Of a stretch of 32,000 bases of DNA, positions 4,144-29,726 are shown one piece after another. The stretch covers positions 3,452,516 through 3,484,515 of the forward strand of contig NZ_BROD01000001.1 in NCBI RefSeq assembly GCF_024345225.1, written 5' to 3'. Numbering within the stretch: the stretch's first letter is position 1; the number at the start of each line of letters is the position of its first letter. The translations under genes were made by a program, and so were the position numbers. The notes below the pieces were generated by a model. It searched no databases. It was not told the DNA's origin and worked only from the letters and a program-made list of their open reading frames with translations. Origin of the DNA: Inconstantimicrobium mannanitabidum. GTDB lineage: Bacteria; Bacillota; Clostridia; Clostridiales; Clostridiaceae.

Positions 4144-6567
4144 CTAACGTATATTTTCTTGCAAAATATCAATAAACTCTTTAACAATATATGGATCAAA
4201 CTGTGTCCCTGAACATTCATTCAATTCTTTAAAGGCATATTCTAAATTAAAAGCCTCCTTATAAGCTCTCTTATTAGTCATTACATCAAAAGAATCTACT
4301 ACATTTATTATTCTTGATAATAACGGAATCTCTTCTCCCTTAAGACCATTTGGATATCCAGTACCATCATATCTCTCATGATGAGCTAGTATTTCGTTTG
4401 CGATGTGTGAAAAATCAGAGCTTGATTTTGCAATTCTATATCCAATTTGAGTATGTGTTTTCATTATAGCCCATTCCTCCACTGTAAGCTTGCCTGGCTT
4501 CATAAGAATATTTTCTGGTATTCCTACTTTACCTATATCATGAAGTAATGACAATAATTTTAATTCATCTAACTTTTCTTGATTTAATCCTAGCTTCTCT
4601 CCTAGTTGAATACTTAATTCCTTTATCCTAACAGTATGTTCTTCTGTCTCGCTATGCTTCTCATGGAGAGTATTTAGTAAAGATTCTATAGTTGCACTTC
4701 TAGTACTCTCTTCTTCTGTAAGCTTATTACGATACATTCTCAAATCTGCTAATCCCATTACTAATTCAGTCTCGCTAATTTCCTCTGTCTTACTTGCATA
4801 TCCTATAGCCATACTAACTTTGTACTTGTATCCAAACAAGCTATCACATTTTATTTTTATCTTGTCTTGCAGATTTTTTACATATTCCTCATCTTTATCT
4901 TCTATTAAAATAATAAATTCATCCCCACCCAAGCGAGATATTATATCATCTTGTTCACAACTTTCTGTTAATATGTTAGCAATTGTACACAGCAAATGAT
5001 CTCCTTCCTTATGACCGAAGGTATCATTAACAACTTTTAATCCATTAACATCACACATAACAATATAGTACTGGGATTTAGGACTTGAGTCTAAAGCTTG
5101 AAATTGTTTCTCCATATAGGACCTGTTCCTTAATCCAGTAAGCTTATCTGAATAGCTTAAAAATAACGTTTCCTCTTCATATTTTTTTCTATCTGTTATA
5201 TTTACCAAAGTACTTATAATTCTTAATGGCTTTCCGTTTTCATCCTTTCCTACAATCTTTCCTCTATGTAAAACCCATGTTATATTTCCTAACTGATCTA
5301 TCATTCTGTATTCTGCATTAAAATACTCAGAGTTTCCATTAATAATATTATGATAATGTTCTCTTAAACGCTCTGCACATTCTAAATGCACTCTAGATAC
5401 ATATTCCCTCTCTGAAACATAATTCTTTTCACTATTAAATCCAATTAATTGTTTTAATTCATTACTTATATACACCCTATCTTCTTTAACTGAATAATCC
5501 AAAACTCCATCATTAGTAGCCTCCATAAGCATCATAAATCTTTCATTTTGTTCTCTCATTCCTTTATAAGCTAAATTAAGCTCTTTTAACATTCTATTAG
5601 TTAATGCTGCAAACATTGCATATTCATCTTTTCCGGGTAAGGAAATCGTTCTTGTAATATCCTTACTTACTATAATCTCTTCGATAAAATCATTAAGTTT
5701 TTTTAATCTTTTTAAGCTATACTTGTTTAAAACTATAAAATCTATAGCTATGATAGCTATGAGTAAAATTATAAAATGTATGTTAAAAAGAATAAAATAT
5801 TCATTTACTGCTTTCTTATCTCCAAAATTAATTAATTTTACAGCAATGACATCATCTCCATTAATGTTCTTTAGCACTTTTACAGCTTCTATAGATTCTT
5901 TATCTTGTTTATATCTTATATTTTCAACTAACTTATCATAACTCGATATATTAAATTTACTTGCTTCTTCAATATCAGCTTCTACATTAACCAACCTTTT
6001 CAAGATATTGAATGTGCTTATGTCTAAATGTTTTATAATAATTAAAAAACCATTACTAATGTTTTGATTATCTGATGGCGTTACAGTTGATATTCCAACA
6101 ACATACAAATTACCATTTTGCACCATTAGACCTACTCTATTCTTTTTTATGTTTTCAATATGTACACTATTAATTATATCTTTAGATATCTTTTTCTCTT
6201 TATCCTCTTTTGCATATACTATCTTTCCACTTTTGTTTATAAAAATCATTGCTTGCAAATCCAAGTTTTTTAATGTGTCATCCTGTAAATTTGAAGCAAT
6301 ATACTTTTTATCACTGTTCGTTATAAATTCATATGTATCTGTCCATTTAGCCCAATCTTCAACAGTTCTAGTTACACTATTCTGTTCTTTAGTAATAACA
6401 TCACTTACTGCATCAAAACTTTTCTTTGTTTCTTCAAGCTTTCTATTATTTACATATCCAGAATAAGAATGTTCAAAAATAATATCTGTAACTCCTATAA
6501 GCGGAATTACACTTAATACAGTTATAACAATTGCCTTATATTTTATTTTTATAATTTTCACCTCCAA
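4144..6567 (-). CDS. Membrane sensor diguanylate cyclase / HD-GYP phosphodiesterase (extracytoplasmic sensor-TM-PAS-GGDEF-HD-GYP)
   Basis: 807 aa. Two TM segments flank an extracytoplasmic domain of about 240 aa. PAS-like MLMEATNDGVLDY. GGDEF domain with intact RLGGDEFIILI. HD-GYP domain with HDIGKVGIP and HHERYDGTGYPNG. The exact start is uncertain: TTG 6567, GTG 6561, or a rarer codon after the GGAGG at 6566-6562. Confidence 0.9.
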   Translation of the reverse strand: MEVKIIKIKYKAIVITVLSVIPLIGVTDIIFEHSYSGYVNNRKLEETKKSFDAVSDVITKEQNSVTRTVEDWAKWTDTYEFITNSDKKYIASNLQDDTLKNLDLQAMIFINKSGKIVYAKEDKEKKISKDIINSVHIENIKKNRVGLMVQNGNLYVVGISTVTPSDNQNISNGFLIIIKHLDISTFNILKRLVNVEADIEEASKFNISSYDKLVENIRYKQDKESIEAVKVLKNINGDDVIAVKLINFGDKKAVNEYFILFNIHFIILLIAIIAIDFIVLNKYSLKRLKKLNDFIEEIIVSKDITRTISLPGKDEYAMFAALTNRMLKELNLAYKGMREQNERFMMLMEATNDGVLDYSVKEDRVYISNELKQLIGFNSEKNYVSEREYVSRVHLECAERLREHYHNIINGNSEYFNAEYRMIDQLGNITWVLHRGKIVGKDENGKPLRIISTLVNITDRKKYEEETLFLSYSDKLTGLRNRSYMEKQFQALDSSPKSQYYIVMCDVNGLKVVNDTFGHKEGDHLLCTIANILTESCEQDDIISRLGGDEFIILIEDKDEEYVKNLQDKIKIKCDSLFGYKYKVSMAIGYASKTEEISETELVMGLADLRMYRNKLTEEESTRSATIESLLNTLHEKHSETEEHTVRIKELSIQLGEKLGLNQEKLDELKLLSLLHDIGKVGIPENILMKPGKLTVEEWAIMKTHTQIGYRIAKSSSDFSHIANEILAHHERYDGTGYPNGLKGEEIPLLSRIINVVDSFDVMTNKRAYKEAFNLEYAFKELNECSGTQFDPYIVKEFIDILQENIR

Positions 6568-6625: not shown

Positions 6626-6691
6626 AGACATCTAAAAATAAGTAGAGATTCCAAATAGATTAATATATAAACTATTTACTTCCAGATGCCT
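6626..6691 (-). repeat. Palindromic repeat element, copy A (in the 5' region of the GGDEF/HD-GYP gene)
   Basis: Minus strand: AGGCATCTGGAAGTAAATAG - 26 nt - CTACTTATTTTTAGATGTCT. As minus-strand RNA, 19 of 20 positions pair, including 4 G-U pairs. As plus-strand RNA those four become C-A mismatches. Confidence 0.8.
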
Positions 6692-8119: not shown

Positions 8120-8168
8120 GGCATCGGAAAATAAACTAGCATATAAACCTATTTACTTTCAGATGCCT
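8120..8168 (-). repeat. Palindromic repeat element, copy B (abuts the nitroreductase SD)
   Basis: Plus strand: GGCATCGGAAAATAAACTAG-CATATAAAC-CTATTTACTTTCAGATGCCT. It is immediately followed by AAGGAGGG and ATG 8184. The conserved arm AGGCATCTGAAAGTAAATAG reads on the minus strand. Confidence 0.8.
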
Positions 8169-9022: not shown

Positions 9023-11974
9023 CTACTTACTTACAGTAATAGTCTTAATTTGCTCTATGAAAGTATTATCATTTCCTATAGCTGTTACTTTTATTTTATG
9101 TGTTCCATTTGAAAGCGTACTTATTGGCATGATATACTCAAAACCACTATTACTATTTTTATAATTAGGAAATACATTACATACATCTTTTCTACTCTTT
9201 CCTACTGTTACTTTTGTTTCTCCTAAATTTATTGCGTCTGCAATATCTTGTCCATCAATGTTTATTACTATATTTTTTACTCCGGATGAATTAAGTGCCC
9301 ATCCTCTTATATCAATATTATCATTTAATACTTGTCCATTAACTGGAGAATCTACATTTATTCTAGGTGGGTTTTGAGAAATATTTACCATCTTACTTTG
9401 AGTAGTTACAGCACCATCATTCCCTATAACCCTTACTTGAACAGTATGTTGTCCTTCTTTTAAATCACTAGCATTCATACTGTAAATAAAACCGCTCTTA
9501 TCGGAACTTGAATAGTTAGAATAGACTTTCTTCACATCTGCTCTAGCTAATCCAGTTGTTGCGTTACCTACTTCTTGTCCATCAACTAATACTTGTATTT
9601 TATTTATTCCTGATTCATTTAATGCCCATCCTCCTACATCTATCTTATTTGTATTTGTAAATGTTTGATTATTGATAGGTGTATCCAAATTCATTCTAGC
9701 TGGATAATGAGACATATTTACTGTTTTAGTTTGACTTATTGCTATGCTATCATTTCCTATAACTCTTACTTCAATTGTATGCTTTCCGTCTTTTAAATTA
9801 CTAGCATCTAAACTATAGATAAAACCACTCTTATCAGCATTTGAATAGTTAGGATATGCTTTCTTCACATCTCCTCTAGGTAAGCCAATTGTTGCATTAC
9901 CTACTTCTTGTCCATCAACTAGCACTTGTATTTTATTTATTCCTGATTCATTTAATGCCCATCCTCCAACATCTATCTTATTTGTATTTGTAAATGTTTG
10001 ATTATTGATAGGTGCATCCAAATTCATTCTAGATGGATGTTGAGAAATATTTACTGTCTTACTTTGTTTTATTACAACACCATCATTACCTATAACGCTT
10101 GCTTCAATTGTATGCTTTCCGTCTTTTAAATTACTAGCATCTAAACTGTAAATAAAACCACTCTTATCAGCATTAGGATAGTTAGGGTAATCTTTCTTCA
10201 CATCTTCTCTACTTAAACCAGTTGTTGCATTTCCTACTTCTTGTCCATCAACTAATATTTGTACTTTACTTATTCCTGATTGATTTAATGCCCAACCTTT
10301 TATGTCTACCTTATTAGTAAATGTTTGATTCTCAGAAGGCAACTCTAAATCCATCTTAGCTTCTAACTTCTTTTTTACTATTACTGTTCTATGATAATTT
10401 AATTCTACTCCATCATTTCCTATTGCACCTACTCCTATTGAATGAGTGCCATCAGACATGGAATTTATATTTATTTTACATTCATATCCACAATTAGCTA
10501 CATTCTTATATTGTGGATATTGTTTTGCTATATCTGGTCTTGCTACATTCACATTTAAGGATGTGTAATATTTACCATCCATGTATATTTTTAATTCATT
10601 TATGCCTGATTGATTTACTGCCCAACCACTTATCATAAAATCACTATCTACATTTTGATTATCACTTGGAGAATCTATAACTAATCTAGCTGGTGGTGCA
10701 TCTTTATTTATTATGTTTAATGTTGCATTAGAAACTTTTTCAGCATATTTTCTATTAGCAATATCTTGAGAACTTTGAGGCCATGGTAATTCTACTAATG
10801 TAGATTTTGTAGTGCCTCCTTTTAATGTTTTTGCCCAATCTGTAACTGAACCTTGTTGAAAATGATCATTGTGTCCAAAACCAAATTGATCATCAAAATA
10901 CTTTCCTATTTCTGAATTTCCTAAAGTACCATTTTCCCATCCATGCATATCTATTACTACATCAGGATTTTTCCCTTTAATAAAATCATATAAACTTTTA
11001 GCTTCTGGTACTGACAAACTTCTTCCACCTGTATTATTTCTACCAGTAGTATAGTCTGTATAATCAACAGGGAATGATCTATTTATATCAACCCTATCAC
11101 TTATAGTACATCTTCCCGGTCCATTATTAGTAAATCCATCACAAAGTCCATCTGGATTTACACTTCTTACAATGTATGCTGTCCATCCATTTAATCCACC
11201 ATTATTATTGGAATAACTAGCCAAATCATTAATTACTCTGTCTGCTATTTTTACAAGTTCTTCTCCATCTCTTCTCCATGCATCCTCGAATCCATGAACT
11301 TCAAATGTCATTATAATTGTTTTAGGACCATTTCCTATTTTATAAGCTCCTAAACTTCTTCCTCTTCCACTTGTGCCATACTTCTCATAAGTCACACCAT
11401 TAACAGATAAGTTAGGTATATTTAATGTACCTAATGCTGTTGGTGAATCTTTTACATATCCTCTTTTAAGACCTGAGTCTGTTTCATACTCTATATATGA
11501 AAACCCATTTTCACTAGTTAGTATTCTTACGCCCTCATTATCATCTACACTTCCAACTTTAGAATAATTATAATCAGGACCTGCATAAACAGTTTGTCCA
11601 CTTCCTACATATCCTGGATTAGGTCCATATGACATATTAGGCACAACTGGAGACCCTGATATGTAGGATACTGGAACAAATCCCCTCTTACGTACATTAT
11701 TTGATGGATTTCCTACATAGTACTCAATAAAAAACCATCCGCAATCAAATCCTAATACTTTAACATTTTCATGCCAATCAACACTTCCTACTTTTACATA
11801 GGCACTTGAATCAGGTCCTGAATATACTGTTGTTCCATCTGTAGTTTGAGCAGAAATATACATACTTCCACTTTTTGCAAAAGCAATCATTGAATCTATA
11901 CCCATAGTACAGAAAAACATAATTAAAATTAATATTGTTGTAATCTTTTTAGTAACATAACTTATTTTCTTCAT
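9023..11974 (-). CDS. Secreted cell-wall-type M14 zinc carboxypeptidase with two N-terminal SH3b-like domains and five C-terminal Ig-like repeats
   Basis: 983 aa with a signal/TM N-terminus. Two SH3b-like segments (GPDSSAYVKVGSV...GFVPVSYI; AGPDYNYSKVGSV...KRGYV). M14 motifs HGFE (HxxE) and DMHGW. Five modules of about 110 aa follow, each with GWALN..SG...(V/I)..DG. Confidence 0.88.
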   Translation of the reverse strand: MKKISYVTKKITTILILIMFFCTMGIDSMIAFAKSGSMYISAQTTDGTTVYSGPDSSAYVKVGSVDWHENVKVLGFDCGWFFIEYYVGNPSNNVRKRGFVPVSYISGSPVVPNMSYGPNPGYVGSGQTVYAGPDYNYSKVGSVDDNEGVRILTSENGFSYIEYETDSGLKRGYVKDSPTALGTLNIPNLSVNGVTYEKYGTSGRGRSLGAYKIGNGPKTIIMTFEVHGFEDAWRRDGEELVKIADRVINDLASYSNNNGGLNGWTAYIVRSVNPDGLCDGFTNNGPGRCTISDRVDINRSFPVDYTDYTTGRNNTGGRSLSVPEAKSLYDFIKGKNPDVVIDMHGWENGTLGNSEIGKYFDDQFGFGHNDHFQQGSVTDWAKTLKGGTTKSTLVELPWPQSSQDIANRKYAEKVSNATLNIINKDAPPARLVIDSPSDNQNVDSDFMISGWAVNQSGINELKIYMDGKYYTSLNVNVARPDIAKQYPQYKNVANCGYECKININSMSDGTHSIGVGAIGNDGVELNYHRTVIVKKKLEAKMDLELPSENQTFTNKVDIKGWALNQSGISKVQILVDGQEVGNATTGLSREDVKKDYPNYPNADKSGFIYSLDASNLKDGKHTIEASVIGNDGVVIKQSKTVNISQHPSRMNLDAPINNQTFTNTNKIDVGGWALNESGINKIQVLVDGQEVGNATIGLPRGDVKKAYPNYSNADKSGFIYSLDASNLKDGKHTIEVRVIGNDSIAISQTKTVNMSHYPARMNLDTPINNQTFTNTNKIDVGGWALNESGINKIQVLVDGQEVGNATTGLARADVKKVYSNYSSSDKSGFIYSMNASDLKEGQHTVQVRVIGNDGAVTTQSKMVNISQNPPRINVDSPVNGQVLNDNIDIRGWALNSSGVKNIVINIDGQDIADAINLGETKVTVGKSRKDVCNVFPNYKNSNSGFEYIMPISTLSNGTHKIKVTAIGNDNTFIEQIKTITVSK
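9026..10693 (-). repeat. Intragenic tandem repeats (five units of 327-345 bp; the three units in 9371..10366 are near-identical)
   Basis: Protein repeats R1-R5 were counted from the C-terminus: 115, 111, 111, 110 and 109 aa. The DNA period of about 333 bp is visible, for example between 9696 and 10028. Confidence 0.85.
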
Positions 11975-20732: not shown

Positions 20733-20935
20733 GATTACCACCACTCTTTCATAATTTTAAGTATCTTTTGCTATCTATAAAGTTCTTTCTTATCTATATT
20801 AAAAAAATAAATTCACTCTTACTAAACAATTTAAATATATCACATTTTACTAATAGTTTACCTTATCTTTACCTTAGTTAATACTAATATTCAGATTAAT
20901 TAGATATATATAAATAGTATTTTTATATACTTGCA

Positions 20936-21021
20936 TATAGAACTATTCCACTTAAATGTTGGTAGAAAAAAGTCGAATTATTGTAACTTGTCCACCAACA
21001 TTATTATGGAATAGCTCTATA
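20936..21021 (+). other. Nested inverted repeat (long hairpin) at the start of the leader of the 21152 gene
   Basis: The outer arms are TATAGAACTATTCCA (20936-20950) and TGGAATAGCTCTATA (21007-21021), matching at 14 of 15 positions. The inner arms AATGTTGGT (20955-20963) and ACCAACATT (20994-21002) match at 9 of 9. Confidence 0.6.
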
Positions 21022-21034
21022 CAAAGAATCTTAA

Positions 21035-21119
21035 GACTTGTTATTTACTTTCAGATGCCTTACAATACATTTACATAATACTGAAAACAATAAAGCATAT
21101 TGAAAAAATAAATAACTAG
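21035..21119 (-). repeat. Palindromic repeat family, copy C (arms in outward-facing order)
   Basis: Plus strand: GACTTGTTATTTACTTTCAGATGCCT (21035-21060), 34 nt, then GCATATTGAAAAAATAAATAACTAG (21095-21119). The conserved arm on the minus strand is AGGCATCTGAAAGTAAATAACAAGTC. Confidence 0.7.
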
Positions 21120-21151
21120 AATTCATGAAAACAGCAAAAGGGGGATCTTCA

Positions 21152-21535
21152 ATGAACTATTTCTATGTTGCACTACTTCTAGAATGTGTTTTTATTACTT
21201 ATTGTATCTATAAAATAGTAGTGGTTTTTAAAACCTTTCTGAAAGAGAAAAAAAAGGGTTATCTAATATTAGCACTAATATTAATTCCATTAGCCACTTA
21301 TCTTTTTTGCGCTCTTACTTTACCTAAAATTAAAGATTTACATAATGCTTTTGCTAACAATCTTTCTTGCCATGAGGGCACAGTTGAAAAGAAATATATC
21401 TCAGGCCACTCCTTTGTTTTAGACGGTGCAGAATATCAATACAATCCTTGGGCATTCAAACCTAAAGAAAAAAGTAGGTACAAGCTTTATTATTTACCTA
21501 ACAGTAAGTTTGTGATTAGGTATGAAGAAGGGTAA
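21152..21535 (+). CDS. Small two-TM membrane protein (hypothetical)
   Basis: Start moved to ATG 21152 (MNYFYVALLL...), which has SD AAGGGGGA 6 nt upstream. Two hydrophobic helices are followed by a soluble tail of about 60 aa. I recognise no family. Confidence 0.6.
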   Translation: MNYFYVALLLECVFITYCIYKIVVVFKTFLKEKKKGYLILALILIPLATYLFCALTLPKIKDLHNAFANNLSCHEGTVEKKYISGHSFVLDGAEYQYNPWAFKPKEKSRYKLYYLPNSKFVIRYEEG

Positions 21536-21591
21536 AATTCACTAACATTTAAATAAAGATGCACTAGTTGCTCGTCTTAATTCAACCCAAT

Positions 21592-21627
21592 AAAAAATAG
21601 GCGGATTCACCGCCTATTTGCATTTTT
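21592..21627. terminator. Bidirectional terminator between the small membrane gene and metG
   Basis: AAATAGGCGG-ATTCA-CCGCCTATTT, with T-runs on both strands. Confidence 0.75.
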
Positions 21628-21643
21628 ACTCAATACTTAGTCC

Positions 21644-23647
21644 TTATTTAAATTGACTTTCATGCTTCTTAAAGAAGTCTACCTTTGGTTCTAAAAACTT
21701 AAGCTTATGAACTTCCTTGTTACCAATGAAAGAGTATATTGGTTCAAAGATATACTCCCAATTCCAAATATCTTCATTGGCTCCTAGGTATTCTCTTACC
21801 ATCTCTGCTCCTTCTGGTGCTATTGGATGGATTAATGCTGTTACTGTACGTACTGCATGGAAAGAATCTATTAAAATCTTCTTTCGCAATTCATTATTGT
21901 TTTCAGCTTCAGCCTGCTTTATATTATTAACCCAGTACTTATTCATGTTTCTAATATAACTATCCAATACATAAGTTATACTGTGGAATTCATGCTTATA
22001 CATATGCTTTTCATAAGTAAGGATTGCCTCATGTGCCTCCTTAAGTATTTCTTCGCTCACTTCACCTTGAGGAATTACTCCATCAAAATACTTTTGTGAT
22101 GTATAGAAGCAAGAACGAACAAGTCTATTAAATACATTAGTAAGAAGATTTCCTTCTTTTAAAACTGTATCTACACCTTCACGCTTATCTTCTTCCATAA
22201 AGGCTTGTGGTTGGAAGCTTGCACTCTTTGTTGATAATCCTAGACTTAAAAAATGGATACGTAGTTGTTCTGCTGTGTAGTAATCAAGAAGTTCCCTTGC
22301 CATTGGAGGTTTAATTTCTGAACTACTACTTGCCTTTTTGCCCATAAATAAAATATGGTTATTAGCAATGATGTTTGGTAACTGAATCTTTGACATATCA
22401 GGCTTTTCATCTATGCTGTTTAATAATGCTGTAAATAAGCCCATTTCTGCAATTCCGTAGAAGTATATATTATCTTCTCCTATAAATTGATAAACCTCAG
22501 CTTCATCATTGTTCCACCACTTCTTCCATTCTTCATCACCAAAACCTTGCTTTTCTAAGTAGGCTTTTGTAAATGATATTGGTGCCCAAAGTGATTCTGG
22601 CCATACCCAAAATGTTAAATCATTTAAATCTTCCTTATCAGGAACCTTAACTCCCCAGTCAACATTCCCCGATAATCTAAATGGTACTAGAGTTTTTCCT
22701 GTTCTAAAGTTAATTCCTTTATTTCCCAGCATAACCCTAGCCTCATCTCTATGCTCTAAATCCTTAAACACAAAGGTTACAGAAGGTTTTTTCTCTTCAT
22801 TTATAGTACTATGTTCTGGTAACTCTGCTTCTAAGGCATCTAAATCCTCTATGTTTTTCTTTTGAACATAGATTACAGGTTCTTTTAAAAACTCTTCAAC
22901 AGTATTTAATAAATACTTACTTGCTTTTTTGGTTTGTCTTAAATAATCTACTCTTTCCTTTAGTAAATCGTTGCATTTATCCAATTTAAAATACCAGTTG
23001 GTAACATCTTTTACTACAGGTTTTTTCCCTGACAAAGCACTTATAGGATCTATAAGTTCACTTGGCATATATTGATGTCCAAGAGAACATTCATCTGCAT
23101 AGGCTTTTTCTGATGAACAACCTTGTATTGGACACTTTCCAATAACCTGTCTTCCATTAAGAAAAACATTAAACTCTTCATCATAAAATTGAGGATTAGA
23201 CATCTTGGTTAGATATCCATTATCATATAACTTTTCAAATACTTCTTTTGAAACCTCACTATGAATTTCTCCAGCTCTATCTAAAGCTGACCCAGCAAAA
23301 AGATTCAAACTAATTTCATATTTATCTAAGGCATCCTTTTGCTTTAAATGATTTTCTTTAACATAGTCTTCTATAGTACCTGAGTATGAATTATCCTCAG
23401 TTATCTTTCTGTAACTTTCTAATATTGGTGAACCATAGCAATCTGTTCCTGATACAAATATAACATTCTCTTTTCCAATTCTATCTCTTAAAAATCTTGC
23501 TAATGTATCAGCGTGGACAAAAACTCCACCTATATGTCCAAAATGTAACTCTTTATTTCCATATGGCATCCCTGCTGTTATTACAGCTCTCTTGGGGAAG
23601 GTTGGTCTTTCATTCTTTCTGGTATTTCGCTCAATGTTTTTTTCCAT
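21644..23647 (-). CDS. metG: Methionine--tRNA ligase (type-2/E. coli-like architecture with a Cys knuckle, no C-terminal Trbp111-like domain evident)
   Basis: Start moved to ATG 23647 (MEKNIERN...), which has SD AGGAGAG 6 nt upstream. The HIGH-type motif is ELHFGHIGG. The zinc-knuckle-like segment is KCPIQGCSSEKAYADECSLGH. The anticodon-binding helical C-terminus has WVNN. A T-box leader lies upstream. Confidence 0.9.
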   Translation of the reverse strand: MEKNIERNTRKNERPTFPKRAVITAGMPYGNKELHFGHIGGVFVHADTLARFLRDRIGKENVIFVSGTDCYGSPILESYRKITEDNSYSGTIEDYVKENHLKQKDALDKYEISLNLFAGSALDRAGEIHSEVSKEVFEKLYDNGYLTKMSNPQFYDEEFNVFLNGRQVIGKCPIQGCSSEKAYADECSLGHQYMPSELIDPISALSGKKPVVKDVTNWYFKLDKCNDLLKERVDYLRQTKKASKYLLNTVEEFLKEPVIYVQKKNIEDLDALEAELPEHSTINEEKKPSVTFVFKDLEHRDEARVMLGNKGINFRTGKTLVPFRLSGNVDWGVKVPDKEDLNDLTFWVWPESLWAPISFTKAYLEKQGFGDEEWKKWWNNDEAEVYQFIGEDNIYFYGIAEMGLFTALLNSIDEKPDMSKIQLPNIIANNHILFMGKKASSSSEIKPPMARELLDYYTAEQLRIHFLSLGLSTKSASFQPQAFMEEDKREGVDTVLKEGNLLTNVFNRLVRSCFYTSQKYFDGVIPQGEVSEEILKEAHEAILTYEKHMYKHEFHSITYVLDSYIRNMNKYWVNNIKQAEAENNNELRKKILIDSFHAVRTVTALIHPIAPEGAEMVREYLGANEDIWNWEYIFEPIYSFIGNKEVHKLKFLEPKVDFFKKHESQFK

Positions 23648-23671: not shown

Positions 23672-23742
23672 GGGCATCTTCAAAAAATAAATAAGTCCAT
23701 ATGCAATAGATATTTAAACTTGCTATTTATTTTCACATGCCT
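23672..23742 (-). repeat. Palindromic repeat element, copy D (between the T-box terminator and the metG SD)
   Basis: Minus strand: AGGCATGTGAAAATAAATAG-CAAGTTTAAATATCTATTGCATATGGA-CTTATTTATTTTTTGAAGATGCCC. The 3' arm ends 11 nt before SD AGGAGAG. Confidence 0.8.
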
Positions 23743-23805
23743 TAGTTAACTTATCATCCCTACAAAAATATTAGGTTTTATAGGTTTAATAATAAAAAAA
23801 TGTAT

Positions 23806-24150
23806 AAAAAAACACCTCCTACAATTTAACTTGCAGGGGCGAAATATTCTCCGCGGTACCACCCTAATTTATTAACATGTCACCATATTAACCTTATCGA
23901 GTACAAATTATACCCTAGTTCTGTAACGTGAACTCACGTCATAGCATCACCTACTAAATAAGGCACCTGAAAGCACATAGGCTTATATCCTAGTCTATTG
24001 GGACTTGTTATTTATTTTCAGATACCTAAATAAGATCCGTATGAAGCTCAGAGGCTTGTTTCATCAAGTTTCCAACTATCTCATTCCAGCAAACTGAGAC
24101 TCTCTGTAAGTTTTTAAAATGACTACTCTTCTCTTCCTAGCCGTTAAAAT
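23806..24150 (-). promoter_or_regulatory. T-box riboswitch leader controlling metG
   Basis: On the minus strand, the canonical T-box sequence AAATTAGGGTGGTACCGCGG is at 23870-23851. A terminator follows: CGCCCCTGCAA-GTTAAA-TTGTAGGAGGTG plus TTTTTTT (23841-23806). Stem I elements are AGAGAG (24106-24100), a distal-loop-like GTTTGCTGGAA, and a candidate specifier AUG followed by A in CTTGATGAAAC (ATG at 24064-24062). Confidence 0.85.
23961..24027 (-). repeat. Palindromic repeat element, copy E (inside the T-box leader)
   Basis: Minus strand: AGGTATCTGAAAATAAATAACAAGTC...GCTTTCAGGTGCCT. The outer 12 bp pair perfectly as minus-strand RNA, with two G-U pairs. It is flanked by the direct repeat CTAAATAAG at 23954-23962 and 24026-24034. 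Confidence 0.8.
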
Positions 24151-24152
24151 TA

Positions 24153-24187
24153 TTGACAGTATAATCTAAATCAAACTATACTGTCAA
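24153..24187 (-). promoter_or_regulatory. metG/T-box promoter embedded in a perfect 11-bp inverted repeat
   Basis: Minus strand: TTGACA (24187-24182), an 18-nt spacer, then TATACT (24163-24158). TTGACAGTATA (24153-24163) and TATACTGTCAA (24177-24187) are exact reverse complements. Confidence 0.55.
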
Positions 24188-29704: not shown

Positions 29705-29726
29705 AGGCATCTTCAAAAAATAAATC
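29705..29726 (+). repeat. Solo arm of the palindromic repeat family
   Basis: AGGCATCTTCAAAAAATAAATC. The 20-mer GGCATCTTCAAAAAATAAAT (29706-29725) is identical to 23673-23692 in copy D. It lies between the lipoprotein stop codon and its terminator. Confidence 0.65.

Follow-up and report, generated by a model that had tools for sequence, protein, structure and literature searches.

The 32,000-nt stretch of Inconstantimicrobium mannanitabidum DNA analysed here (hereafter referred to as the window) encodes on its minus strand a class I tRNA ligase paralog that resembles methionyl-tRNA synthetase (MetRS), and a T-box riboswitch leader precedes this gene (Table 1). The protein encoded by the gene matches one of I. 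mannanitabidum, a species of the Clostridiaceae, at 100% identity. The leader carries an inserted palindromic repeat, tentatively referred to as copy E, at the tip of its Stem II. Copy E belongs to a family of miniature transposable elements with inverted repeats (MITEs), and it was most likely inserted into the Stem II apical loop and tolerated there by a riboswitch that still works. The match of the leader to the Rfam T-box model RF00230 is full-length (model positions 1-219) and scores above the gathering score, with 96 nt at the Stem II loop vs. 19 nt in the model. The Stem I motifs, Stem IIA and its pseudoknot partner, Stem III, and the T-box sequence with its UGGN bulge plus the alternative antiterminator and terminator are all intact, as are the promoter, the ribosome-binding site, and the 667-codon open reading frame (ORF) of the regulated gene. 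From the promoter to the end of the terminator (23806) the leader measures ~340 nt, in agreement with the ~345 nt given in a preliminary description of this DNA.

That description had placed a 63-bp palindromic element at 23963-24025, bracketed by exact copies of a 9-bp direct repeat, CTAAATAAG, and had taken the repeat for a target-site duplication. Direct reading of the plus strand (...CCTA CTAAATAAG GCACCTGAAAG...TTTTCAGATAC CTAAATAAG ATCC...) bears out both copies of the repeat, with 63 bp between them. The palindromic insert stands as well; its boundaries do not, as a profile hidden Markov model of the family, built solely from 13 short metagenome copies and then run on the window with nhmmer, gives an element of 65 bp. 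The stronger profile match of copy E is on the plus strand, antisense to the leader; it covers the right 41 nt (23986-24026, model positions 28-67, E=1e-5) and ends exactly at 24026. A near-full-length match is found on the minus strand (24025-23962, model positions 2-67, E=0.029). Judged by its sequence, copy E is a family member whose left half has diverged. What abuts the element directly on both sides is the 7-bp sequence TAAATAA, as the C and G at the two ends of the 9-mer coincide with the terminal C and G of the element itself. Exact 9-bp direct repeats at 30-100 bp spacing number 34 in this window of 30% G+C, vs. 26 in Markov simulations; since such repeats are common here, this one gains meaning solely from bordering on an element that was defined independently.

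The nearest relative (hereafter referred to as the sister), whose regulated protein is 88% identical, was found on three Logan contigs, two of which (L008 and L009) cover the leader. A search of genome contigs with the regulated protein returned only relatives at ≤65% identity. The sister has the same neighbours, an MFS transporter gene upstream (85% identical) and a gene for a metallo-beta-lactamase-fold protein downstream (94% identical). Its leader is 74-87% identical outside the inserts and aligns throughout, but without two segments, which correspond to copy E and to a second copy of the family referred to as copy D. The comparison with an empty site that had been suggested for this locus can thus be made directly: in place of the CUUAUUUAG[insert]CUUAUUUAG of the window, the sister shows GGAUCUUAUUU-UGUAAUAAGUGAUGC, in which CUUAUUUUG occurs once. 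On the sense strand, the window reads CAUACGGAUCUUAUUUAG[GUAUCUG...CAGGUGC]CUUAUUUAGUAGGUGAUGCUAUG and the sister CAUACGGAUCUUAUUU-UGUAAUAAGUGAUGCUAUG, with a single CAAAATAAG at its empty site. The empty site and the family membership together back the earlier suggestion of a transposition-type insertion of a mobile repeat into an existing T-box leader.

The preliminary description had also left room for an equivalent helix shared by all orthologous leaders. None of the eight other leaders carries copy E, and Stem II is short in six of them, which span Clostridiaceae and Vallitalea. Their T-box hits measure 247 nt in the sister (L008), 264 nt in a metagenome contig whose protein is 73% identical (L011), 246 nt in Clostridium zeae (L013), 245 nt in both C. 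cellulovorans (L137) and C. intestinale (L139), 253 nt in Vallitalea (L138), 287 nt in a metagenome-assembled genome (L001), and 350 nt in Desnuesiella (L014). The hit in the window measures 316 nt, vs. 245-264 nt in the orthologues without an expanded Stem II. An alignment of six leaders shows two invariant blocks, CAUACGGAU and UGAU.CUAUGACG, and in most leaders the conserved flanks CAUACGGAU...UGAUGCUAUGACG enclose a short hairpin of 13-18 nt. As Stem II is short in most outgroups, the extra sequence of the window is a gain in its own lineage. Two orthologues are expanded at the same apical loop, namely Desnuesiella massiliensis, with an unrelated and very stable expansion of ~105 nt (L014, ~1180-1290; z = -3.7), and the metagenome-assembled genome, with a 58-nt extension (L001, ~2782-2840). 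The Desnuesiella expansion was considered as a member of the same family and rejected, as it has no profile match; a search with the family profile found no copy in any orthologous locus. Two mobile elements unrelated to the MITE were seen near orthologous genes, an IS200-type Y1 transposase gene directly downstream of the C. cellulovorans orthologue (L137, 3388-3861) and a group II intron upstream of the Desnuesiella leader (L014, 481-556).

The outer 12 bp of the element (AGGUAUCUGAAA/UUUCAGGUGCCU) had been predicted to pair in the sense RNA with the help of two G-U pairs, and the insert to fold as an autonomous hairpin. Both predictions hold: the outer pairs have probabilities of 0.84-0.99, the 81-nt segment folds with the 12-pair outer stem at -19.2 kcal/mol (z = -2.4), and in the fold of the whole leader (346 nt) all pairs of copy E are internal to it. 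Folding with and without the element, as had been proposed, left the rest of the predicted leader fold identical after removal of the element and one TAA. The statement that the element lies between Stem I and the T-box/antiterminator sequence is correct but imprecise, the exact site being the apical loop of Stem II. RNAfold gives Stem II of the sister as a basal helix CAUACG/GC.UAUG, an internal loop, a helix CUUAUU/AAUAAG, and a loop UUGU. Stem II of the window has the same basal helix and an upper helix CUUAUU/AGUAGG, and the copy E hairpin rises from the former loop. In published T-box-tRNA structures, it is the IIA/B pseudoknot and the conserved lower portion of Stem II that are turned toward the tRNA, and the tip of Stem II points away from it, which fits the natural length variation at the apical loop. 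The RF00230 score of the window leader is 102.2 bits, vs. 108.6 bits in the sister.

The family to which copy E belongs has 25-nt inverted termini, GGCATCTTCAAAAAATAAATAAGTC...GACTTATTATTTATTTTCAGATGCC, with the ends GGCATC...GATGCC. The right-end 19-mer, TATTTAYTTTCAGATGCCT, is present in >120 metagenome stretches, about a quarter of which are chance matches in unrelated coding sequence. Two size classes share the same ends, a long form of ~158 nt (48 unique copies) and a short form of ~67 nt (13 unique copies), the short form being the long form minus its interior. The elements are non-coding (for example, a copy at 4254-4411 of L022 lies in a 480-nt intergenic spacer). The long form (L015-L134), with a mean identity of ~83% among copies from many metagenomes, forms a single long imperfect hairpin, in which several internal pairs show compensatory changes, few in all. 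Plasmids of Clostridium taeniosporum and C. estertheticum carry unannotated copies as well. The family thus combines a length <300 bp, absence of coding capacity, inverted termini, a fixed duplication, dispersed copies, and an empty site, as expected of MITEs. A reading as the right end of an IS200/IS605 element or as a TnpB guide RNA, suggested by a conserved block upstream of the 19-mer, was dropped because a left end, inverted termini, and a duplication were seen. The long form has no match in Rfam, even at E=10, and the family is absent from phage records, a single 19-mer match in a viral contig looking like chance. Literature searches with the terminal sequences returned unrelated primers only, and those on Clostridium MITEs or on MITEs in riboswitches yielded nothing specific. 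We thus seem to be dealing with an undescribed and widespread clostridial MITE family.

Within its 32 kb the window contains four paired copies and two solo ends of the family. Copy D, which is better preserved than copy E, is found in the leader that also holds copy E, past the terminator and ahead of the ribosome-binding site; copy D plus ~40 further nt (about 23742-23780) are absent from the sister. Two further T-box leaders with the family were found on unrelated metagenome contigs. In L075, a long copy (5336-5495, flanked by TTA/TTA) sits at the end of the U-tract of the terminator of an Ile (AUC) T-box, ahead of the ribosome-binding site, and the gene downstream reads as a branched-chain aminotransferase (ilvE-like). 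In L079, a long copy (2718-2873, TAA/TAA) lies 8 nt past a T-box terminator, just before the ribosome-binding site. Among the leaders examined, three thus hold four copies, of which only copy E lies within the sensing structure. The A/U-rich tails of such leaders supply TWA targets and evidently tolerate the family.

The length of the target-site duplication was examined across the family. When GGCATC...GATGCC is taken as the extent of the element, identical 3-nt flanks were found in 49 of the 61 unique metagenome copies, and no copy had a longer flank match. The flanks follow the pattern TWA, with 32 cases of TAA/TAA, 17 of TTA/TTA, and three discordant ones (Fisher p=1.3e-10). Since the W on the left matches that on the right in direct and not in inverted orientation, the flanks represent a duplication and not a part of the inverted termini. 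Copy E, flanked by TAA/TAA, conforms to this pattern. A duplication at copy E is therefore retained from the preliminary description, while its length of 9 bp is not; the 9-bp repeat is probably a 3-bp duplication extended by A/T-rich loop sequence.

Table 1. Positions in the window of the T-box leader, its regulated gene, and the copies of the MITE family.
Feature	Positions	Strand	Remarks
MITE copy A, ~64 bp, degenerate, intergenic	6627..6690		E=0.13, weak
MITE copy B, ~48 bp, degenerate	8120..8167		Right end E=0.017; the ribosome-binding site of a nitroreductase gene lies directly downstream
Copy C, solo right end, followed by TTA	21035..21059	+	E=7.8e-5
Regulated gene, 667-aa MetRS-like class I tRNA ligase paralog	21644..23647	-	
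MITE copy D, short form, full length	23673..23741	+	E=1.4e-10, model positions 1-67; flanks TTG/TTA
Terminator hairpin and U-tract	23806..23839	-	
T-box leader, 316 nt	23832..24147	-	Rfam RF00230, 102.2 bits, gathering score 93
T-box sequence AAUUAGGGUGGUACCGCGG, antiterminator 5' side	23851..23869	-	Discriminator-pairing base U
Stem IIA hairpin CGUGAGUUCACG and downstream GAACU	23914..23938	-	GAACU can pair with the hairpin loop (IIA/B pseudoknot; read by eye)
Stem II 3' strand, AGUAGGUGAUGCUAUG	23940..23955	-	Pairs with CUUAUU...CAUACG beneath the inserted hairpin
9-bp repeat, left copy, CTAAATAAG	23954..23962		C + TAAATAA + first G of the element
Probable 3-bp target-site duplication, left copy TAA	23959..23961		
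MITE copy E, short form, 65 bp, termini GGCACC...GATACC	23962..24026	+	nhmmer family profile
9-bp repeat, right copy, CTAAATAAG	24026..24034		Last C of the element + TAAATAA + G
Probable 3-bp target-site duplication, right copy TAA	24027..24029		
Stem II 5' strand, CAUACGGAUCUUAUU	24029..24043	-	CAUACGGAU invariant in six aligned orthologues
Stem I with K-turn (GGCUAGGAAGAG), AGAGUA, and distal ACAGAGAG motif	24046..24142	-	
Specifier loop 3' strand, GAAACAAG	24055..24062	-	Apparent specifier CAA, then purine G
Promoter-like site TTGACA-18 nt-TATACT	24158..24187	-	-35 at 24187-24182, -10 at 24163-24158
Solo left end, preceded by TTA	29706..29725	+	E=0.011

These features suggest the following course of events. 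A transposase acting in trans would have moved the element and, presumably, duplicated a 3-bp TWA target, with integration at a UUA of the Stem II apical loop, which is rich in U and A, in the I. mannanitabidum lineage after its split from the nearest sampled relative. The inverted termini of the element would then pair into a self-contained hairpin atop the preserved Stem II helix CUUAUU/AGUAGG, and such a hairpin would leave the Stem II core, the IIA/B pseudoknot, Stem III, the T-box sequence, and the antiterminator/terminator intact. Most likely, the insertion is a tolerated and presumably neutral passenger, and the riboswitch should still work.

Several points weigh against this reading. 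The left half of copy E is strongly diverged from the family consensus, with the weak full-length match given above. No autonomous element with the family termini was found in any fetched locus: where paired termini lie 0.6-3.5 kb apart, they enclose no transposase (the ORFs are ordinary genes and encode a WYL regulator, an epimerase, and IspD and SelU-like proteins), and no transposase is encoded by the ORFs upstream of orphan 19-mer matches, which are mostly chance matches in coding sequence of unrelated organisms. Minimum free energy folds do not reproduce the true tertiary fold of a T-box. Stem II is regarded as a helix in contact with the tRNA, and 68-72 extra nt could alter the folding kinetics. 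Further, the flank repeat of copy E is a perfect 7 bp, seen in none of the 61 census copies, and the sister site is matched acceptably, too, when 7 bp are removed together with the element.

The last point bears on a reading in which copy E has a genuine target-site duplication of 7-9 bp and was inserted by another transposase or in another mode than the rest of the family, which we regard as possible though unlikely. TAAATAA is perfectly repeated at both ends of the element, the sister has a single CAAAATAAG, and the chance that a 3-bp duplication is extended by 4 bp to 7 bp is estimated at only ~0.007 (~0.7% per copy), with none of the 61 census copies (0/61) matching over more than 3 bp. 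On the other hand, the family rule of a 3-bp TWA duplication (p=1e-10) is obeyed by copy E, a single chance extension is not unlikely over ~70 copies, and the site is a low-complexity, (TAAA)n-like sequence in a window where 9-bp repeats at such spacing are common. The two lengths also predict different single-copy empty sites, CTAAATAAATAAG for 3 bp and CTAAATAAG for 7 bp. Compared by eye with the sister, whose hairpin has 16 nt, a 3-bp duplication yields a pre-insertion tip CUUAUU-UAUUU-AGUAGG of 17 nt, with four substitutions and a 1-nt gap, while a 7-bp duplication yields CUUAU-UUA-GUAGG, with two substitutions and a 3-nt gap, which leaves only 13 nt. We moderately favour the 3-bp over the 7-bp duplication.

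Other readings concern what the insertion does, or whether it is an insertion at all. That it damaged the riboswitch, resulting in termination or readthrough regardless of tRNA charging and in a gene that is decaying or otherwise expressed, is improbable. The accumulation of both copies D and E in one leader, an Rfam score 6 bits below that of the sister, and the nature of the regulated gene, a divergent paralog that may be dispensable, would all be in line with damage. Against it, the T-box motifs, promoter, terminator, ribosome-binding site, and 667-codon ORF are intact, the element folds by itself, and the orthologues with 58-nt and ~105-nt expansions at the same loop still score above the gathering score. 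We give little credence to the opposite idea that the hairpin was co-opted as a module of the riboswitch (a kinetic spacer, a handle for an RNase or a protein, or a partner of copy D), even though its outer 12-bp stem was kept through two G-U pairs while the interior of the left arm diverged, two related copies are present in one leader, and the same loop was expanded independently in Desnuesiella and in L001. A typical RNase III substrate would, in our judgement, have a longer and less A/U-rich stem, the family acts as a selfish repeat at many unrelated sites, and copy E is carried by a single genome. A broader form of this idea, in which the Stem II apical loop is a recurrent landing pad that captures and keeps mobile hairpins and copy E was co-opted to tune tRNA sensing, seems just as doubtful; a co-opted MITE might lengthen the co-transcriptional decision window or recruit a nuclease or protein, and riboswitches would in that case owe structural innovations to transposable elements. 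Finally, the segment could in principle be a native, lineage-specific extension of Stem II that resembles the repeat by chance or was lost in the sister. The variable apical length of Stem II among orthologues would allow this, but we consider it very improbable given the independent family profile match (E=1e-5) with its end exactly at 24026, the TWA flanks, and the short Stem II in six of the eight other orthologous leaders, none of which has the copy E sequence.

A MITE in a transcribed leader is of a kind already known, while its position within a riboswitch helix is unusual. Like Correia/NEMIS elements of Neisseria and the RUP, BOX, and SPRITE elements of Streptococcus pneumoniae, the members of the clostridial family are small and non-coding, with inverted termini and short duplications, and those elements likewise occur in tens to hundreds of intergenic copies and form hairpins in co-transcribed 5' and 3' untranslated regions. 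The clostridial family differs from them in sequence and in its 3-bp TWA duplication; Correia elements duplicate TA. Duplications of 3 bp (TNA/TWA) and G-rich termini are known from the IS5 superfamily (IS1031/IS427/ISL2 subgroups), from PIF/Harbinger elements, and from Tourist MITEs. The clostridial family shares the TAA/TTA duplication and GGC...GCC termini with IS5-superfamily elements; for a derivation from them, only the TWA duplication fits, and no transposase was found. REP, BIME, and REPIN sequences and the palindromes derived from IS200/IS605 elements are likewise short, intergenic, and present as hairpins in transcripts; an assignment of the family to this group was rejected, as its members lack a target duplication and long inverted termini, whereas the clostridial family has a 3-bp duplication and 25-nt termini.

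With regard to T-box leaders, the stem Sa of the Staphylococcus aureus glyS T-box, which is said to lie in the terminator/antiterminator domain, invites comparison, and to our knowledge it has not been linked to any mobile repeat. Copy E is like stem Sa, a lineage-specific extra helix that keeps the core architecture (PMC4574755), in being an extra helix on a canonical T-box in one lineage, and unlike it in being a demonstrable member of a repeat family with an empty site in the sister. The nearest published case that we found concerns the pneumococcal trp leader, in which a BOX element separates two tandem T-boxes and regulation is apparently retained (Croucher et al., 2011; PMC3049150). Copy E lies within one T-box, in the Stem II apical loop, and not between two complete T-boxes. 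A 2024 review of prokaryotic MITEs names riboswitches merely as a possibility (PMC10969869). The locus thus amounts to a natural experiment, in which a 65-bp hairpin at the Stem II tip sets apart two leaders that are closely related, and the tolerance for such an appendage is directly testable. Repeat insertions also call for caution in the automated annotation of riboswitches, since they make leaders longer and reduce their model scores. Further, the analysis documents an apparently undescribed, widespread clostridial MITE family with a clear 3-bp TWA duplication and a tendency toward T-box leaders.

The label "metG T-box" given to this leader in the preliminary description is doubtful. The specifier loop strand reads GAA-A-CAA-G in the window and GAA-[A/G/C]-CAA-G across the nine orthologous leaders (the window, L008, L011, L013, L014, L001, L137, L138, and L139), with CAA invariant and not AUG. 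The codon register (positions 5-7, followed by a purine) was calibrated on the ilvE-type T-box of L075, GAA-U-AUC-A. In the Rfam alignment, the AUG of UUGAUGAAA belongs to the helix above the specifier loop, and the specifier appears to be CAA (Gln). The discriminator-pairing base in the T-box bulge is U or C among the orthologues, both of which can pair with G73. Bacterial tRNA-Gln has G73 as discriminator, and tRNA-Met and tRNA-Thr have A73. Scans of 30 loci for tRNA genes, made with regard to discriminator bases, found none.

The regulated protein also departs from MetRS. Its best score against the NCBIfam MetRS equivalogs is 258 bits, far below the cut-off of 587; it has KASSS in place of KMSKS, a Tyr where MetRS chains of the E. 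coli type carry the His of YFHS, and an insertion of ~67 aa (residues 260-326). On these sequence features, the "MetRS" is a divergent paralog whose substrate may not be methionine. A Gln-type specifier over a MetRS-like paralog is a lead and not a conclusion. This side finding may matter more than the insertion itself and, if true, would point to an aminoacyl-tRNA synthetase-like enzyme with a mis-annotated substrate.

Several minor observations concern the surroundings of the leader. The promoter-like site sits within a perfect palindrome with 16-bp arms (TTGACAGTATAGTTTGATTTAGATTATACTGTCAA, 24153-24187), which presents TTGACA-18-TATACT on either strand and is partially conserved in the sister; from its sequence, it could be an operator. 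Between the stop codon of the MetRS-like gene and the metallo-beta-lactamase-fold gene, the window has ~900 nt (20745-21643) where the sister has only 50 nt. This segment contains a predicted membrane ORF of 136 aa (21125-21535) without a Pfam match and the solo MITE end of copy C (21035-21059), and a terminator-like hairpin with a T-run was read by eye at ~21594-21620. Elsewhere in the window, a 983-aa protein encoded at 9023-11974 on the minus strand has four Big_7 domains and an SH3_3 domain; the DNA for the Big_7 domains consists of 333-nt tandem repeats with 69-79% identity.

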